Shown: positions 9,585-18,949 of the stretch, in pieces
Layout: each line of letters starts with the position of its first letter
How positions within the stretch are numbered: position 1 is the first letter of the stretch
DNA from: a virus
UHGV virus genome: UHGV-0124208
Reading direction: 5' to 3' (one strand)
Length of the DNA: 33,408 nt
The notes under the pieces: model-generated
The model's database searches: none
What the model was told of the DNA's origin: nothing
Seen by the model: only the letters and a program-made list of their open reading frames with translations
Position numbers and translations under genes: made by a program

Positions 9585-11044
9585 GCACAAAATTTTATAC
9601 CCTGCTGACGGATATTGGCGCGGCGAAACTTGCCAGCGCCGCCGCGATCGGTGTGCCGCTAAAAATTACCCATATGGCGGTGGGCGATGGCGGCGGAGTA
9701 TTGCCAACGCCGGACGCAAAGCAGACGGCACTGGTAAATGAGAAACGCCGGGCTGCGCTGAATATGCTTTATATCGACCCGCAGAATAGCAGCCAGATTA
9801 TTGCTGAACAGGTGATCCCTGAAAACGAGGGCGGTTGGTGGATACGTGAAGTGGGCCTGTTTGATGAGTCAGGGGCATTGATTGCCGTGGGGAACTGCCC
9901 GGAAAGCTATAAACCGCAACTGGCTGAAGGCAGCGGGCGTACCCAGACCGTGCGCATGGTGCTGATTACCAGCAGTACGGACAATATCACACTGAAAATT
10001 GACCCTGCCGTAGTGCTGGCAACCCGCAAGTATGTGGATGATAAGGTACTGGAGCTGAAGGTGTACGCGGATGATCAGATGGCAAAACATCTTGCCGCAC
10101 CGGACCCGCATTCACAGTATGCGCCAAAAGACAGCCCGACGTTTACCGGAACCCCCAAAGCGCCAACGCCAGCGGCGGGGAATAATACTACGCAGCTTGC
10201 GACCACCGCGTTTGTTCAGGCGGCACTGACGACCCTGATTAATGGTGCGCCAGCCACGCTGGACACGCTGAAAGAAATTGCCGCAGCCATTAACAATGAC
10301 CCGAAATTCAGTACCACCATTAACAATGCGCTGGCACTGAAAGCGCCGCTGTCGAGTCCGGCACTCACCGGAACGCCAACCGCACCTACTGCGGCACAGT
10401 CGGTCAACAATACACAGATTGCCACCACGGCATTTGTGAAATCGGCGATTGCGGCAATGGTGGGTTCTGCACCTGCGGCACTGGATACACTGAACGAACT
10501 GGCGGCGGCGCTGGGGAATGACCCGAACTTTGCCACGACAATGCTTAATGCACTGGCAGGTAAACAACCGCTGGACAATACGCTGACTAATTTGAGTGGA
10601 AAGGATGTAGCTGGTCTTCTCACATACCTTGGTTTAGGAGAAGGCTCTGCATTACCCGTAGGTGTGCCTGTTCCGTGGCCTTCAGTCACACCGCCAACAG
10701 GCTGGCTGAAATGCAACGGTGCAGCTTTTTCTGCCGAAGAGTATCCGGAACTGGCAAAAGTTTATCCGACAAATAAATTGCCAGATTTACGCGGCGAATT
10801 CATTCGTGGGTGGGATGATGGAAGAGGAATTGATTCAGGACGGACTCTCCTGTCTGCTCAGGACGGGAGCATTGAGGCACACGGCCATGATTACAATGGG
10901 GTCATCTATACTTCTAGCGGTCCTTCCTGGGCTAATACGACGGATGCGGGACACCGGGCATATTCGGGATTTACATCATCATATGGCGGAAGCGAAACCC
11001 GTCCACGAAATATTGCATTTAACTATATCGTAAGGGCTGCATAA
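9581..11044 (+). CDS. H: Tail fibre protein gpH; the C-terminal receptor-binding tip (from about residue 351) lies inside an invertible segment
   Basis: 487-aa ORF; N-terminus MSTKFYTLLTDIGAAKLA... is P2 H-like; internal about 73-aa tandem repeat; crossover site at 10617-10642 within the coding sequence. Confidence 0.85.
   Translation: MSTKFYTLLTDIGAAKLASAAAIGVPLKITHMAVGDGGGVLPTPDAKQTALVNEKRRAALNMLYIDPQNSSQIIAEQVIPENEGGWWIREVGLFDESGALIAVGNCPESYKPQLAEGSGRTQTVRMVLITSSTDNITLKIDPAVVLATRKYVDDKVLELKVYADDQMAKHLAAPDPHSQYAPKDSPTFTGTPKAPTPAAGNNTTQLATTAFVQAALTTLINGAPATLDTLKEIAAAINNDPKFSTTINNALALKAPLSSPALTGTPTAPTAAQSVNNTQIATTAFVKSAIAAMVGSAPAALDTLNELAAALGNDPNFATTMLNALAGKQPLDNTLTNLSGKDVAGLLTYLGLGEGSALPVGVPVPWPSVTPPTGWLKCNGAAFSAEEYPELAKVYPTNKLPDLRGEFIRGWDDGRGIDSGRTLLSAQDGSIEAHGHDYNGVIYTSSGPSWANTTDAGHRAYSGFTSSYGGSETRPRNIAFNYIVRAA
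10133..10573 (+). repeat. Tandem duplication (2 x about 73 codons) inside tail fibre H
   Basis: Protein residues 185-257 (SPTFTGTPKAPTPAAGNNTTQLATTAFVQAALTTLINGAPATLDTLKEIAAAINNDPKFSTTINNALALKAPL) and 258-331 (SSPALTGTPTAPTAAQSVNNTQIATTAFVKSAIAAMVGSAPAALDTLNELAAALGNDPNFATTMLNALAGKQPL) are clearly homologous. Confidence 0.85.
10617..10642. promoter_or_regulatory. Hin/Gin-type 26-bp inversion crossover site inside H (left boundary of invertible segment)
   Basis: TTCTCACATACC-TT-GGTTTAGGAGAA: imperfect dyad with a 2-bp core, same layout as hix/gix/cix sites; the right half encodes G-L-G-E in the H frame. Confidence 0.7.
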
Positions 11045-11646
11045 TGGATAACGCCGTATTAAATAGCGAGATTATTGCCACGAAGGCGGGGAATATTACC
11101 GTCTATAACTATGATGGTAAAACTCGGGAATATATTTCTACTTCAAATGAATATCTTGCCATTGGTGTCGGTATCCCTGCATATTCCTGTTTAGATTCAC
11201 CAGTTACACGTAAAGCTGGTTATGCAATCTGCCGTTCTGCAGATTTTAACTCATGGGAATATGTGCCAGATCATCGCGGTGAAATCGTTTTTAGCACCGA
11301 AACAGGAGAATCAAAAGAAATCACAGCACCAGGTGATTACCCTGAAAATACAACCACTATCGCCCCGTTAACGCCATACGATGAATGGGATGGTGAGAAA
11401 TGGGTGACGGATACCGAGGCACAGCATAGCGCCGCAGTAGACGCGGCAGAAGCACAGCGCCAGTCGCTGATTGATGCTGCAATGGCTTCCATTAGTCTGA
11501 TTCAGCTGAAATTACAGGCCGGGCGGAAGCTGACGCAGGCAGAAACCACCCGGCTTAACGCCGTGCTTGATTACATTGACGCGGTGACGGCAACAGATAC
11601 GAGCACCGCGCCGGATGTCATCTGGCCTGAACTGCCGGAGGCGTAG
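11044..11646 (+). CDS. G: Tail fibre assembly chaperone gpG (paired with the currently expressed H tip)
   Basis: 200-aa ORF overlapping the H stop (TAATGG); ends ...DVIWPELPEA, the typical Tfa C-terminus. Confidence 0.8.
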   Translation: MDNAVLNSEIIATKAGNITVYNYDGKTREYISTSNEYLAIGVGIPAYSCLDSPVTRKAGYAICRSADFNSWEYVPDHRGEIVFSTETGESKEITAPGDYPENTTTIAPLTPYDEWDGEKWVTDTEAQHSAAVDAAEAQRQSLIDAAMASISLIQLKLQAGRKLTQAETTRLNAVLDYIDAVTATDTSTAPDVIWPELPEA

Positions 11647-12058
11647 GCCATTCAATATCTGGCGCACCGGAAGTATCGACCAGTTCCAGTGCGTCCAGAT
11701 AATCCAGCCACAAATTATATTGCGCCAGTTCGTCACCTTTCAGACGACCAATAGCCGCTTTACCAGGCCATTGTTTACTGTTCATATAATCGTTGGCCTG
11801 ATTAATCAATTGCTGCTTTTCCAGTTCGGCTGCAGCAATCTGTTCCTCATGTGTTGGTGGTGGAATTTCAGACCATGCAGGAAAACCATTTTCTCCAGCG
11901 ATACGGATTTTTCCTTTCGGCGGTAATCCGGAAAACTCAATATACACCTGCTCATCAACTTCAACAGCATCATCTGGCCATGAGTCAGCTTGAGTGTAAT
12001 CCTCTTTCATCTCCAGCGGATAGAAAGAGTTTGTAGTCGCGGAATATATATAATTCAT
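11618..12058 (-). CDS. Alternative tail fibre assembly chaperone (G'), paired with the silent alternative H tip
   Basis: 146-aa minus-strand ORF convergent with, and overlapping, G; ends ...APDIEWPTPPAVQAR, the same Tfa C-terminal signature. Confidence 0.75.
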   Translation of the reverse strand: MNYIYSATTNSFYPLEMKEDYTQADSWPDDAVEVDEQVYIEFSGLPPKGKIRIAGENGFPAWSEIPPPTHEEQIAAAELEKQQLINQANDYMNSKQWPGKAAIGRLKGDELAQYNLWLDYLDALELVDTSGAPDIEWPTPPAVQAR

Positions 12059-12079
12059 TTCTCATTCCATATAGCTAAA

Positions 12080-12472
12080 TTAACAGCCTAACGCTAAAAA
12101 TGAAGCGCCGAGACCTGGAGTACCGGCTCTGGATATAAATTTAACCGGGTCGGAACTAAAACCTGCACAGGCAATATAACCAACAGCCCCGCTATCTGGT
12201 GTGTAGTCTTGTGAGACCAAAACACGCAGACATCTGTTCGGAAATGCAATCGGGAAATGGGTTACCACATCCTGTGCAATGCCTGGAGTGCTGATTGAGC
12301 CCCACTGAAGAATCAAACCAGATGGTAATTTTTGATATCCAGTACCTGAAACAGAAAGCGTGAAGCTACCCATATCAGGTATCTGATTCGCCCCTGTCCC
12401 CACATTCCTTTTTGCCGCTTCTCCCAAACCAACGTTTATGAAAATGCAGAGATAACGGCTAACTGGCATCAT
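12080..12472 (-). CDS. Alternative tail-fibre C-terminal tip segment (Hv'), promoterless; would fuse in frame to the H constant part after inversion
   Basis: Minus-strand ORF whose N-terminal region spans the 12419-12444 crossover site and encodes the same G-L-G-E junction as H; no independent start is expected (the ATG at 12472 is probably fortuitous). Confidence 0.65.
12419..12444. promoter_or_regulatory. Hin/Gin-type 26-bp inversion crossover site (right boundary of invertible segment)
   Basis: TTCTCCCAAACC-AA-CGTTTATGAAAA; its reverse complement aligns with the 10617 site (core TT, flanking half GGTTTGGGAGAA vs GGTTTAGGAGAA). Confidence 0.7.
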
Positions 12473-12499
12473 CTCCGGTTTTTATTCAGGGGGATGATC

Positions 12500-13066
12500 A
12501 TGCTTATTGGCTATGTACGCGTGTCAACAAATGACCAGAACACCGATTTGCAACGCAATGCACTGAACTGTGCGGGATGTGAGCGGATTTTTGAGGATAA
12601 AATCAGTGGCACCAAGTCCGACAGACCGGGGCTGAAAAAGCTGCTCAGGACACTATCGGCAGGAGACACGCTGGTTGTCTGGAAGCTGGACAGACTGGGG
12701 CGCAGTATGCGGCATCTTGTTACGCTGATAGAAGAGCTGCGCCAGCGTGGCGTGAATTTCCGAAGCCTGACTGACAGTATTGATACCAGCACCCCAATGG
12801 GCCGTTTCTTTTTTCATGTCATGGGTGCCCTGGCTGAAATGGAACGCGAACTGATAGTTGAACGTACCAGGGCGGGGCTGGCTGCAGCTCGTGCTAAAGG
12901 CAGAGTAGGTGGACGCCGTCCTAAGTTGACCAGCGAACAGTGGGCACAGATTGGGCGTTTACTCGAGGCCGGAGAATCAAGACAGCGTATTGCACTGATT
13001 TTTGATGTAGGCGTTTCTACCATTTATCGAAAATTTCCGGCAAATAAGAACAATAAATCTCCCTGA
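12500..13066 (+). CDS. Site-specific DNA invertase, serine recombinase of the Gin/Hin/Pin/Cin family
   Basis: MLIGYVRVSTNDQNTDLQRNAL...GDTLVVWKLDRLGRS...MGRFFFHVMGALAEMERELIVERT... is near-identical in motif content to Gin/Hin as I recall them (catalytic Ser in YVRVS). ATG 12500 chosen over 12494 for spacing to the GGGGG RBS. Confidence 0.9.
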   Translation: MLIGYVRVSTNDQNTDLQRNALNCAGCERIFEDKISGTKSDRPGLKKLLRTLSAGDTLVVWKLDRLGRSMRHLVTLIEELRQRGVNFRSLTDSIDTSTPMGRFFFHVMGALAEMERELIVERTRAGLAAARAKGRVGGRRPKLTSEQWAQIGRLLEAGESRQRIALIFDVGVSTIYRKFPANKNNKSP

Positions 13067-14390: not shown

Positions 14391-14906
14391 ATGGCTTTAC
14401 CACGCAAATTAAAACACCTGAACCTGTTTAATGACGGGAACAACTGGCAGGGGATCGTTGAGTCGCTGACGCTGCCGAAATTTACCCGCAAATATGAGAA
14501 GTATCGCGGCGGCGGAATGCCGGGTGCAGTGGATGTGGATCTGGGGCTGGATGACGGCGCACTGGATACGGAATTTTCCATTGGTGGTACTGAACTGCTG
14601 CTGTTTAAGCAGATGGGCAAAGCCACGGTGGATGGTATCCAGTTGCGCTTTACCGGCTCTATCCAGCGTGACGATACCGGGGAAGTGCAGGCCGTGGAGC
14701 TTGTGGTGCGTGGACGTCACAAAGAAGTGGATTCCGGCGAGTGGAAGACGGGCGAAAGCAACACCACCAAAGTGACCAGTACCAACAGCTACGCGAAGCT
14801 GACTATAAATGGTGAGGTGCTCTATGAAGTGGACCTTATCAACATGGTGGAAATTGTGGACGGTGTGGACCTGATGGAAGCGCACCGCAACGCCCTCGGC
14901 CTCTGA
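14391..14906 (+). CDS. FII: Tail tube protein gpFII
   Basis: 171-aa ORF immediately after the sheath gene; begins MALPRKLKHLNLFNDGNNWQG, P2 FII-like. Confidence 0.9.
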   Translation: MALPRKLKHLNLFNDGNNWQGIVESLTLPKFTRKYEKYRGGGMPGAVDVDLGLDDGALDTEFSIGGTELLLFKQMGKATVDGIQLRFTGSIQRDDTGEVQAVELVVRGRHKEVDSGEWKTGESNTTKVTSTNSYAKLTINGEVLYEVDLINMVEIVDGVDLMEAHRNALGL

Positions 14907-14960
14907 TGTATCTGAACGGCGCGGGATACCGCGCCAGAACCCAATTTACAGGACAGCAAA

Positions 14961-15263
14961 ATGAGCGATAAGCAGACTGAAAAGACTATTCAACTGGATA
15001 CCCCCATCAAGCGCGGTAAAACAGAAATCACCGAAATTGTGCTGCGTAAACCGCAGTCCGGTGCGCTGCGCGGTACACGCCTGCAGGCCATTATGGATAT
15101 GGATGTGAACGCGATGATGACCGTGATCCCCCGCATCTCCAGTCCGGCACTGACTGCACAGGAAATTGCAGAGATGGACCCGGCAGATCTCACTGCCATG
15201 TCGGTTGAGGTTGTCACTTTTTTGTTGAAGAAGTCGGTGCTTGCCGGTTTACCGACAGCCTAA
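14961..15263 (+). CDS. E: Tail assembly chaperone gpE (zero-frame product)
   Basis: 100-aa ORF preceding the tape-measure gene; contains the slippery heptamer near its 3' end. Confidence 0.8.
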   Translation: MSDKQTEKTIQLDTPIKRGKTEITEIVLRKPQSGALRGTRLQAIMDMDVNAMMTVIPRISSPALTAQEIAEMDPADLTAMSVEVVTFLLKKSVLAGLPTA

Positions 15264-15397
15264 CGGTTGACGATCTGGTGGCAGATATCGCCACCATTTT
15301 TCACTGGCCGCCATCCGTTACTGACGTTATGCCGCTGACCGAAGTGCTGGAATGGCGGTATAAAGCGATTCAGAGAAGCGGGGCCAACGATGAGTGA
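15218..15397 (+). CDS. E' extension reached by a programmed -1 frameshift at T_TTT_TTG (15218-15224), giving an E+E' fusion that ends inside the start of T
   Basis: Slippery heptamer read directly in the E zero frame (ACT TTT TTG). The -1 frame from 15224 is open for 57 codons (VEEVGACRFTD...RSGANDE) to TGA at 15395-15397. This has no ATG, so it is absent from the ORF track. The E/E' frameshift is established for P2. Confidence 0.7.
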   Translation, partial: FFVEEVGACRFTDSLTVDDLVADIATIFHWPPSVTDVMPLTEVLEWRYKAIQRSGANDE

Positions 15398-18300
15398 TAA
15401 CAACCTGCGGCTGCAGGTCATTCTTAATGCGGTTGACAAACTCACCCGCCCATTCCGTGTTGCACAGGCCAGTTCGAAAGAGCTGGCTGGCGCAATCAGA
15501 AACTCCCGTGACGCATTAAAGCAACTCAATCAGGCGGGTAATAGCCTGGAAAAATTTCGCAAGCTGCAGGCTGATAACAAGAAGTTAGGCGACAGGCTGA
15601 ACTATGCCAGACAGAAGGCTAATTTGCTTAGCTCTGAGCTGGAGGCGATGGAACAACCATCACAACGGCACCTTGTGGCTTTAGGTCGGCAAACGCTGGC
15701 AGTCCAACGCCTGGAAGAACAGCAAAAATATTTGCAGAAGCAAACGGCGCTTGTGCGTGCAGAACTGTACCGGGCGGGAATTTCTGCGAAAGATGATGCG
15801 GGAGCAACTGCCCGTTTAGCCCGTGAAACATCACGTTATAACCAGGAATTGTCGAAACAGGAGGCGCGGCTGAAGCGACTGGGTGAAGCTCAGCGCAGGA
15901 TGAATGCGGCGCGTGCCAGTTATGCCCGTTCGCTGGAGGTGCGCGATCGTATTGCAGGAGCCGGAGCCACTACCACGGCTGCAGGGCTGGCAATGGGGAC
16001 GCCAGTGATGGCGGCAGTAAAAAGCTATACCAGCATGGAAGATGCCATGAAAGGTGTGGCAAAGCAGGTCAATGGTCTGCGTGACGATAATGGAAACCGT
16101 ACTGCACGTTTTTATGAAATGCAGGATGCCATCAAGGCTGCCAGCGAACAGTTGCCGATGGAAAACGGTGCGGTGGACTTCGCTGCACTGGTTGAAGGTG
16201 GTGCGCGCATGAACGTCGCAAACCCTGACGACAGCTGGGAAGACCAGAAACGTGACCTGCTGGCCTTCGCCAGTACGGCAGCAAAGGCGGCAACAGCCTT
16301 TGAGCTGCCAGCGGATGAACTGTCAGAAAGTCTGGGGAAAATCGCCCAGCTCTACAAAATCCCTACCCGCAATATTGAACAGCTCGGTGATGCGCTGAAT
16401 TATCTGGATGATAACGCCATGTCGAAAGGTGCAGACATCATTGATGTCATGCAACGCCTGGGCGGTGTGGCTGATCGTCTGGATTATCGTAAAGCGGCGG
16501 CGCTGGGTTCCACCTTCCTGACACTGGGCGCTGCGCCAGAGGTTGCAGCCAGTGCAGCAAACGCGATGGTGCGTGAATTGTCCATTGCCACCATGCAAAG
16601 CAAGAGTTTCTTTGAAGGGATGAATCTGCTGAAACTCAATCCTGAAGTGATTGAAAAGCAGATGACGAAGGATGCGATGGGAACCATCCAGCGCGTGCTG
16701 GAGAAGGTGAACGCACTGCCGCAGGACAAGCGTCTGTCTGCCATGACCATGTTGTTTGGTAAAGAGTTTGGTGATGACGCGGCGAAACTGGCAAACAACC
16801 TTCCGGAACTGCAGCGCCAGCTAAAACTGACAGCGGGCAATGATGCGCTCGGTTCCATGCAGAAAGAATCCGACATCAACAAAGACTCACTTTCTGCTCA
16901 GTGGTTGCTGGTCAAAACCGGAGCGCAGAACACCTTCAGCAGCCTGGGCGAAACGCTGCGCCAGCCGCTGATGGATATTCTGTACACGGTGAAAAGCATC
17001 ACGGGGGCGTTGCGCCGCTGGGTGGAAGCTAACCCGGAACTGACAGGCACACTGATGAAAGCAGCGGCTGTTGTGGCTGCGGTTACTGTCGGCCTCGGCA
17101 CCTTAGCGGTGGCGCTGGCTGCAGTGCTGGGGCCGCTGGCAGTGATCCGTCTGGGATTCTCTGTGCTGGGTATCAAAACGTTACCTTCCGTTACGGCAGC
17201 AGTAACTCGAACCAGCAGCGCGTTGTCCTGGTTAGCTGGCGCACCACTGATACTGCTGCGACGCGGACTTGCTTCATCGGGCAACGCTGCGGGTCTACTT
17301 ACTGCACCGTTGTCATCTTTGCGCCGCACGGCATCACTGACGGGAAATGTCATGAAAACTGTAGCAGGTGCGCCGGTTGCACTTTTGCGGTCTGGATTAT
17401 CCGGTTTACGTGCTGTTGCTGTGATGTTTATGAATCCTCTGGCGGTACTGCGCGGTGGACTGGTCGCCGCAGGCACGGTGCTGCGAGTACTGGTATCTGG
17501 TCCACTGGCGATGCTGCGCGTTGCCCTGTATGCCGTATCTGGTCTGTTAGGTGCTCTGCTCAGTCCGATAGGTCTTGTGGTTACTGCACTGGCGGGCGTG
17601 GCGCTGGTTGTCTGGAAATACTGGCAACCCATCACCGCATTTCTTGGTGGCGTGGTGGAAGGATTCAAAGCGGCGGCAGGTCCCGTCAGTGCAGCATTCG
17701 AACCACTTAAGCCTGTGTTTCAGTGGATTGGCGACAAAGTGCAGGCGCTCTGGGGCTGGTTTACTGATCTGCTGACGCCCGTTAAGTCGACCTCTGCCGA
17801 ACTGCAGAGTGCAGCGGCAATGGGGCGGCGATTCGGGGAGGCACTGGCGGAAGGGCTGAATATGGTCATGCATCCGCTGGACTCCCTGAAATCCGGCGTT
17901 TCCTGGTTGCTGGAGAAACTCGGCGTTGTCAGTAAAGAGGCCGCAAAGGCGAAACTACCGGAAAGTGTGACGCGTCAGCAACCTGCGACGGTGAATACAG
18001 ACGGTAAAGTGATGATGCCATCGGGTGGTTTTCCGTCATGGGGATATGGCTTTGCGGGGATGTATGACAGCGGCGGCTATATCCCGCGCGGGCAGTTTGG
18101 CATCGTCGGTGAAAACGGGCCGGAAATTGTTAACGGCCCGGCAAACGTGACCAGCCGGAGAAATACAGCTGCACTGGCTGCCGTTGTCGCCGGAATGATG
18201 GGTGTTGCTGCCGCGCCAGCAGAGCTTCCACCGTTACATCCTTTGGCACTTCCCGCGAAAGGTGGAGAAGCAATTGTGAGTCGCGCAGCCACTGTGCCGC

Positions 18301-18467
18301 TCGTTCAACGGATTGAGGCACCGACGCAGATCATCATTCAGACGCAGCCAGGACAAAGTGCGCAGGATATTGCGCGGGAGGTGGCACGCCAGCTTGATGA
18401 ACGTGAACGCAGGCTAAAGGCAAAAGCCAGGAGTAACTACAGCGATCAGGGGGGATACGACGCATGA
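15390..18467 (+). CDS. T: Tail tape-measure protein gpT
   Basis: 1025-aa ORF after E/E'; long coiled-coil N-terminal region and hydrophobic central segments typical of tape-measure proteins. Confidence 0.9.
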   Translation: MSDNNLRLQVILNAVDKLTRPFRVAQASSKELAGAIRNSRDALKQLNQAGNSLEKFRKLQADNKKLGDRLNYARQKANLLSSELEAMEQPSQRHLVALGRQTLAVQRLEEQQKYLQKQTALVRAELYRAGISAKDDAGATARLARETSRYNQELSKQEARLKRLGEAQRRMNAARASYARSLEVRDRIAGAGATTTAAGLAMGTPVMAAVKSYTSMEDAMKGVAKQVNGLRDDNGNRTARFYEMQDAIKAASEQLPMENGAVDFAALVEGGARMNVANPDDSWEDQKRDLLAFASTAAKAATAFELPADELSESLGKIAQLYKIPTRNIEQLGDALNYLDDNAMSKGADIIDVMQRLGGVADRLDYRKAAALGSTFLTLGAAPEVAASAANAMVRELSIATMQSKSFFEGMNLLKLNPEVIEKQMTKDAMGTIQRVLEKVNALPQDKRLSAMTMLFGKEFGDDAAKLANNLPELQRQLKLTAGNDALGSMQKESDINKDSLSAQWLLVKTGAQNTFSSLGETLRQPLMDILYTVKSITGALRRWVEANPELTGTLMKAAAVVAAVTVGLGTLAVALAAVLGPLAVIRLGFSVLGIKTLPSVTAAVTRTSSALSWLAGAPLILLRRGLASSGNAAGLLTAPLSSLRRTASLTGNVMKTVAGAPVALLRSGLSGLRAVAVMFMNPLAVLRGGLVAAGTVLRVLVSGPLAMLRVALYAVSGLLGALLSPIGLVVTALAGVALVVWKYWQPITAFLGGVVEGFKAAAGPVSAAFEPLKPVFQWIGDKVQALWGWFTDLLTPVKSTSAELQSAAAMGRRFGEALAEGLNMVMHPLDSLKSGVSWLLEKLGVVSKEAAKAKLPESVTRQQPATVNTDGKVMMPSGGFPSWGYGFAGMYDSGGYIPRGQFGIVGENGPEIVNGPANVTSRRNTAALAAVVAGMMGVAAAPAELPPLHPLALPAKGGEAIVSRAATVPLVQRIEAPTQIIIQTQPGQSAQDIAREVARQLDERERRLKAKARSNYSDQGGYDA

Positions 18468-18949
18468 TGATGGTGCTGGGATTGTACGTGTTTATGCTGC
18501 GCACCGTTCCGTATCAGGAACTGCAGTATCAACGCAGCTGGCGACATGCGGCAAACAGCCGGGTAAACCGTCGTCCGTCCACGCAGTTTCTGGGACCGGA
18601 AAACGACATGCTGACGCTTTCCGGTGTTCTTATGCCGGAGATAACAGGCGGCAGGCTGTCGTTGCTGGCACTGGAGCAGATGGCAGAACAGGGGAAAGCA
18701 TGGCCCCTGATTGAAGGCAGCGGCACGATTTACGGCATGTATGTGATTGAGGGACTGAATCAGACTAAAACGGAGTTTTTCCGCGACGGTATGCCGCGCA
18801 GGATTGAGTTCACCCTTTCGCTAAAACGGGTGGATGAATCCCTGTCCGATATGTTCGGTGATCTCAGTACTCAACTGAATAATCTGCAGGACACGGCAAC
18901 GTCTGCCTTAAGCGATATCAGTAAAACGGTGGGAGGGCTGCTGTCGTGA
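18464..18949 (+). CDS. U: Tail protein gpU
   Basis: 161-aa ORF overlapping the T stop; position as P2 U. Confidence 0.85.
   Translation: MMMVLGLYVFMLRTVPYQELQYQRSWRHAANSRVNRRPSTQFLGPENDMLTLSGVLMPEITGGRLSLLALEQMAEQGKAWPLIEGSGTIYGMYVIEGLNQTKTEFFRDGMPRRIEFTLSLKRVDESLSDMFGDLSTQLNNLQDTATSALSDISKTVGGLLS

Follow-up and report, generated by a model that had tools for sequence, protein, structure and literature searches.

A probable programmed -1 ribosomal frameshift joining tail genes E and E' in a Fels-2-like relative of phage P2

The virus genome UHGV-0124208, a stretch of 33,408 nucleotides referred to here as the window, very probably contains the programmed -1 ribosomal frameshift that joins E to E+E' in the tail operons of P2-like phages, in the version found in phages of the Fels-2/Cartapus type; the slippage itself is predicted from the sequence. 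The anatomy of the site, the homology of both reading frames to known tail proteins and the conservation of slipperiness are established for this locus. A frameshift of this kind is an ordinary and already known feature of P2-like tail operons, and the sections of the argument below concern the evidence that it is present here, the form it would take, and the way in which it has been recorded, or missed, in the databases.

The initial annotation had placed a T_TTT_TTG heptamer near the end of gene E in the correct phase, followed by a -1 frame open for 57 codons up to a stop overlapping the start of gene T, and both statements agree with the coordinates obtained (Table 1). Base 15218 is the third base of the ACT codon for Thr86, and the next zero-frame codons are TTT (15219-15221, Phe87) and TTG (15222-15224, Leu88), so that the heptamer is read as T_TTT_TTG in the frame of E, the phase required for tandem -1 slippage. 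The zero frame and the -1 frame overlap over 15209-15263, with the heptamer inside the overlap. Read from the slip codons, the -1 frame gives FF-VEEVGACRFTDSLTVDDLVADIATIFHWPPSVTDVMPLTEVLEWRYKAIQRSGANDE, in which VEEVGACRFTDSLTVDDLVADIATIFHWPPSVTDVMPLTEVLEWRYKAIQRSGANDE represents the 57 residues beyond the two slip codons, and its stop overlaps the ATG of T as ATGAGTGA. The predicted fusion is join(14961..15224, 15224..15397), with a length of 145 aa.

Table 1. Coordinates of the E/E' locus and of other features of the window discussed in the text.
Feature	Position	Strand	Remarks
Inverted repeats, imperfect	10618-10643 / 12418-12443		21/26 matching; core TTGGTTTAGGAGAA; each fibre variant has one at its GLGE motif
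Two ORFs: alternative tail-fibre C-terminal cassette and second fibre-assembly ORF	12080-12472 and 11618-12058	-	
Serine invertase, Hin/Gin/Cin type	12494-13066	+	Pfam Resolvase, 2e-53, and HTH_7; adjoins tail-fibre genes
Gene FII, tail tube protein	14391-14906	+	Directly 5' of E; Pfam PF04985 Phage_tube, 6e-60
Shine-Dalgarno AGGA of gene E	14950-14953	+	
Gene E, zero-frame product	ATG 14961 to TAA 15261-15263	+	100 aa; tail assembly protein, gpE homologue; from ORF list and translation
TGA closing the -1 frame	15206-15208	+	Frame open from 15209, 9 nt upstream of the heptamer
GAGG, SD-like tetramer (candidate stimulator)	15207-15210	+	7 nt upstream of the heptamer
Slippery heptamer T_TTT_TTG	15218-15224	+	T run 15218-15223, G at 15224; from sequence and phase
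E' extension, -1 frame	15224-15397	+	57 codons and TGA 15395-15397
Weak 8-bp hairpin AAGUCGGU-GCUU-GCCGGUUU (candidate)	15231-15250	+	6 nt downstream of the heptamer; MFE fold
GTG-start ORF, 39 aa, 'GpE family phage tail protein' of the databases	15278-15397	+	3' two-thirds of E'
Gene T, tail tape measure protein	15390-18467	+	Pfam PF10145 PhageMin_Tail, 1.9e-18; from ORF list
In-phase G_GGG_GGA at the T/U junction	18449 (18449-18467)		12 nt before the T stop
Gene U	18464-18949		In the -1 frame of T

As to position, two overlapping ORFs sit between the gene for the tube protein FII and the gene for the tape-measure protein T, and the wider order of sheath FI, tube FII, E/E', tape measure T, U and D is that of the P2 FETUD operon. 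The succession of tube, chaperone pair and tape measure is diagnostic. As to homology, E matches the Pfam family PF10109, Phage_TAC_7 (E=1e-18, residues 9-88, above the gathering cut-off), described in Pfam as 'tail assembly chaperone proteins E, or 41 or 14'; the E part of the fusion matches phrog_103, 'tail protein', at 2e-42, and the record of the Escherichia phage Cartapus labels E 'tail assembly protein'. The peptide of the -1 frame, taken alone, matches PF06528, Phage_P2_GpE (E=4e-19, 68 bits against a cut-off of 23), and phrog_1756 covers residues 85-145 of the fusion, thus reaching back to the slip site. In an alignment of E' with 17 relatives, columns of D, E, W, R, A and R are invariant. 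None of the NCBIfam models match E or E+E', and a sequence search of the PDB with the fusion gave nothing at E values up to 1, and for these reasons the functional roles rest on analogy. Rfam and tRNA scans over the whole window detected no RNA family and no tRNA.

The closest comparison is offered by P2 itself, whose record (AF063097) enters gpE+E' as a joined CDS ('shares amino terminus with gpE; -1 frameshift; essential tail protein') and marks, by a misc_feature, the 'site of -1 translational frameshift'; the sequence reads GGT_TTT_TTG. The P2 locus is like that of the window in having TTTTTTG in the same phase, a -1 frame that opens 9 nt upstream and an E' whose end overlaps the start of T, with FII on the 5' side, T on the 3' side and both domains in the same Pfam families. 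It differs in sequence, with approximately 49% identity over the fusion (tblastn), and in the lengths of the products: E is 100 aa in the window and 91 aa in P2, because the zero frame runs 39 nt past the heptamer in the former versus 21 nt in the latter, and the fusions are 145 and 142 aa, respectively. Two published accounts describe the -1 shift of P2 at TTTTTTG, which yields from one start both E (91 aa) and E+E' (142 aa) (PMC3091744; Christie et al., 2002, as cited there), an E' that has no ribosome-binding site of its own, in an arrangement that parallels lambda (PMC3931495), and a slip site conserved in P2-like phages, and they have the fusion of P2 made at a low, fixed frequency, with both products essential for tail assembly (PMC3091744; PMC3931495). 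A joined CDS is also annotated in the records of PSP3, KL3, and L-413C. In Fels-2 (NC_010463), STM2699 and STM2697.1 have the heptamer, phase and overlap geometry of the window, and the record, that of the closest classified relative, notes that 'gpE+E' forms if translational slippage occurs'; the -1 frame happens to be open there for 123 codons versus 62 in the window. In Cartapus, CARTA_26 and CARTA_27 have the heptamer, phase and overlap of the window, with E' entered only as a 39-aa CDS, without a join. The assignments of E and E' to tail-chaperone homologues, and of the site to a known conserved feature of P2-type operons, both made in the initial annotation, thus find support in the two Pfam matches and in an identical P2 site, of the same phase and annotated as a -1 frameshift, that relatives keep.

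Conservation was followed in three sets of sequences. A tblastn search with the predicted fusion matched 425 phage records, in 388 of which one place covered at least 80% of the query, as two joined pieces that correspond to two reading frames. For an anatomy set of 20 sequences, the window and 19 relatives drawn from Peduoviridae genera, a Vhmlvirus and a Zymomonas plasmid prophage, with E+E' identity down to approximately 40%, the zero-frame stop, the -1 frame and the in-phase heptamers were located in each relative. Each of the 20 has, at the corresponding position, a slippery heptamer that is in phase and lies just 5' of the conserved E' peptide. It is TTTTTTG in Cartapus, Fels-2, SEN8, P2, Kapieceevirus, ENT90, YenM_201.16, PSP3, two Burkholderia phages, a Ralstonia phage, phiCTX, Alfacinha3 and SEN4, TTTTTTC in Vibrio MAR, TTTTTTT in Zymomonas, GGGAAAG in Mannheimia 587AP1, where the site was noted by its annotators, CCCTTTC in Reipivirus and AAATTTT in Xuanwuvirus. 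The heptamer has thus turned over with its phase kept in the loci L092, L094 and L097, from Reipivirus (CCCTTTC), Baylorvirus (GGGAAAG) and Xuanwuvirus (AAATTTT), respectively. The length of the E tail also differs between genera, with the stop located 15-69 nt beyond the heptamer.

For the close relatives, we collected 82 full-length gapless loci from IMG/VR and GenBank, representing 45 distinct haplotypes. The check on heptamer conservation in close relatives, proposed together with the original reading, came out in its favour, as 81 of these 82 near-identical loci have TTTTTTG and one has TTTTTTA (L041 1750, IMGVR_UViG_2778261510_000014), which is still slippery. Across the 45 haplotypes, variable sites fall on zero-frame positions 3, 1 and 2 in the proportions 41:8:4 in the part that is E only, and on -1-frame positions 3, 1 and 2 in the proportions 14:8:3 in the part that is E' only. 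Of the seven variable sites in the overlap of E and E' (15218-15263), five fall on position 3 in the -1 frame, which corresponds to position 2 in the frame of E. Downstream of the heptamer the -1 frame is thus the more strongly constrained of the two, and the 12 C-terminal residues of E (LKKSVLAGLPTA) seem to be under less constraint than the beginning of E'.

With respect to the phage as a whole, the window is a Fels-2-like relative of P2, of the Fels-2/Cartapus type, as judged from sequence identity. Over the region, the DNA of Escherichia phage Cartapus (OV696611, Elveevirus, Peduoviridae) is 99.3% identical, that of Fels-2 85% and that of Klebsiella phages of the genus Kapieceevirus approximately 79%, and no DNA-level match of the region to P2 was found. 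Cartapus, which resides as prophage 4 in the adherent-invasive E. coli strain LF82, has been described as P2-related and near Fels-2 (PMC9928086). The window approximates a complete P2-like genome in length (Cartapus has 33,368 nt), and its first 25 kb are approximately 96% identical to the Klebsiella phages KP12 and 4LV2017 over 81-86% of that length, so that the phage type is common to E. coli and Klebsiella. A genome of the Fels-2/Elveevirus type, the window also has a tail-fibre invertase, and P2 is not known to have one. Together with the two minus-strand ORFs and the inverted repeats (Table 1), the region 10618-13066 looks like an invertible host-range segment of the Mu/P1 style, of approximately 1.8 kb. 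A further observation concerns the other end of gene T, where slippage at the in-phase G_GGG_GGA would produce a T-U fusion. At the corresponding position Fels-2 reads G_GGG_GGG; P2 lacks such a run, and its U is preceded by a separate GGAGG in the intergenic region. The run in the window was set aside as a second frameshift site, being absent in P2 and located where the ribosome-binding site of U is expected; most likely it is the ribosome-binding site of U, or simply a series of Gln-Gly-Gly codons.

For the phage of the window, we infer both the slippage with its efficiency and the roles of the products as chaperones, in the following terms. Most ribosomes translating E would stop at TAA 15261, giving the 100-aa E, and a minority would slip one base back with TTT (Phe87) in the P site and TTG (Leu88) in the A site. 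The tRNAs would re-pair with TTT-TTT at 15218-15223, and translation would restart at GTT 15224 in the -1 frame and end at TGA 15395, giving a 145-aa E+E' in which a 57-aa C-terminal domain, E', follows the N-terminus of E; its predicted tryptic junction peptide, ISSPALTAQEIAEMDPADLTAMSVEVVTF[L/F]VEEVGACR, has 39 residues. By analogy with gpE/gpE+E' of P2 and gpG/gpGT of lambda, E and E+E' would be tail assembly chaperones present in a fixed molar proportion; the E part common to both would bind or coat the tape-measure protein T, and the E' domain of the rare long form would recruit the tube protein FII, so that the tail would polymerise to the right length. For P2, the efficiency of frameshifting is reportedly roughly 10%.

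In lambda, the mechanism has been worked out. According to one published summary, the short and long products are needed in a fixed ratio, gpG:gpGT being approximately 30:1 (PMC5009743, summarising Levin, 1993; Xu, Hendrix & Duda, 2004, 2013, 2014), both bind the tape measure, with the T domain binding the major tail protein, and neither is present in the mature virion (PMC5009743). Like the window, lambda has a pair of overlapping ORFs between the genes for the major tail protein and the tape measure, and the -1 shift occurs close to the 3' end of the first ORF. However, the two share no sequence similarity: the Pfam scan detected no lambda-type TAC family, with only Phage_TAC_7 and Phage_P2_GpE matching, so the locus is analogous to lambda gpG/gpGT in architecture and not a member of the same group. 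The slippery sequence of lambda is G_GGA_AAG, and the tail is contractile in the phage of the window versus non-contractile in lambda. In E. coli dnaX, a -1 frameshift takes place at A_AAA_AAG, flanked by a Shine-Dalgarno sequence upstream and a hairpin downstream. The window resembles dnaX in having a bacterial tandem-slippage heptamer; it also has an SD-like GAGG upstream and a small hairpin downstream, but these two elements are neither strong, significant nor conserved, and while the dnaX shift truncates the protein, that of the window would extend it.

The candidate stimulators deserve a closer look in this respect. The GAGG tetramer has a predicted anti-SD duplex of -6.3 kcal/mol, and motifs such as GAGGTGG or AAGGTG are found in many relatives, if not in all, being absent in the loci of the Zymomonas plasmid and of E. 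coli 503458. In most enterobacterial relatives, G-ending Glu/Lys codons are favoured at this SD-like spot, 4-7 nt upstream of the heptamer. The conservation of the motif is, however, confounded by the conservation of the E/K-V-V residues that are encoded there. Downstream, the fold of 15225-15300 has z = -1.9, with 10 of 200 shuffles folding as well, and that of 15190-15340 has z = -1.4. The hairpin persists in Fels-2 and Kapieceevirus only by way of transitions that turn G-U pairs into G-C or A-U, and is absent in distant relatives, and heptamer-anchored folds of 18 sequences (the window and 17 relatives) revealed no common downstream structure. On these z scores and with no common fold, a downstream stimulatory structure was rejected as a family feature; the hairpin may conceivably act as a stimulator specific to this lineage, a weak possibility. 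A stimulatory structure is likewise not reported for P2 and Burkholderia phages (PMC3091744).

Two variants of the mechanism bear on these elements and on the junction itself. In one, tRNA-Phe would slip in the P site only, on U_UUU, during the wait on UUG, placing Phe instead of Leu at residue 88 of the fusion, and in the other the efficiency of frameshifting would be tuned in cis, in a way not described for P2, through GAGG(T) and the hairpin in the lineage of Fels-2, Elveevirus and Kapieceevirus. Taken jointly, they seem to us rather unlikely.

Programmed ribosomal slippage has also to be weighed against slippage of the transcribing enzyme, in which RNA polymerase would stutter on the T6 run and add an extra U to some of the mRNAs, from which the same E+E' would be made by standard translation. 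The site is indeed a homopolymeric run, one inserted base would give the -1 frame, and some relatives (Kapieceevirus, the Zymomonas plasmid) have runs of T7. However, efficient transcriptional slippage in bacteria needs runs of approximately 9 or more A/T, against which T6 is short. Moreover, the GGGAAAG, CCCTTTC, and AAATTTT of relatives are not homopolymeric, and suit tandem tRNA slippage, not stuttering, while the X_XXY_YYZ phase relative to the frame of E is strict in 20 of 20 sequences, which only the ribosomal model requires. That the heptamer changes with phase and slipperiness kept fits selection for ribosomal slippage and speaks against polymerase stuttering, which we consider very improbable.

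More improbable again is an E' that would be an independent small gene of 39 aa starting at GTG 15278, with the heptamer being incidental, even though current database entries imply as much. The 39-aa ORF begins at an in-frame GTG, is long enough to contain the whole of the Pfam GpE model (37 positions), and is annotated as a 'GpE family phage tail protein' in Cartapus and in PGAP RefSeq entries of E. coli, with the same coordinates (CARTA_27, 'GpE tail protein'; WP_000763311.1). Yet the sequence upstream of this GTG, acggttgacgatctgGTG, contains no Shine-Dalgarno motif, and GTG is not a conserved start, because the residue aligned with it varies among relatives (V, M, A, I or W), Ralstonia having Ala, Vibrio MAR Trp, and both Mannheimia and Alfacinha3 Ile. 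The -1 frame is, moreover, open and conserved back to the heptamer, with the conservation of E' starting 5' of the GTG, at FFVxExG, in line with the extent of the phrog_1756 match; the in-phase slippery heptamer is kept across families, and P2 reportedly produces its E' by extending E. The 39-aa ORF is thus most likely, as judged from these comparisons, a truncated mis-annotation of E'. The contention that E' lacks a start codon and so escapes ORF callers needs to be qualified accordingly: it stands for the full-length E', as the -1 frame contains no ATG, GTG or TTG between 15209 and 15277, but fails for the shorter ORF, which annotators routinely list as a gene, as in Cartapus and in the PGAP entries. 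The in-frame starts within the -1 ORF are GTG 15278, ATG 15329, and GTG 15344. The consequences are widespread: the locus is present at high identity in 974 of the 5426 complete E. coli genomes of the collection searched (approximately 18%), and every RefSeq or phage record sampled for it has E' only as the 39-aa ORF, without the E+E' join (for an E. coli RefSeq example of this split annotation, see L100, 579-698).

The last possibility, that of a T-rich codon pair that happens to precede an open alternative frame without function, can draw on the commonness of such sequences, as TTTTTTG is found 7 times per strand in the window (14 on both strands) and, among ORFs of 90 aa or longer, 9 of the 52 in-phase X_XXY_YYZ heptamers have a -1 frame that passes the zero-frame stop (mostly in spurious ORFs nested in real genes), but it is practically negligible in the face of a -1 peptide that matches Pfam at 4e-19, an arrangement that tblastn matches in two pieces in 388 phage records and a site kept in every relative examined. 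As the anatomy of the heptamer is by itself not rare, the case rests on position, on the homology of both frames and on conservation, three independent lines of evidence, each of which was tested and each of which holds.

Overall, the value of these observations lies mainly in annotation, where join(14961..15224,15224..15397), entered beside the 39-aa ORF or in its place, would give the correct product. In terms of biology, this is one more well-conserved tail-chaperone frameshift, and it raises no new question, while the turnover of the heptamer at a fixed phase across the Peduoviridae illustrates selection on slipperiness itself.
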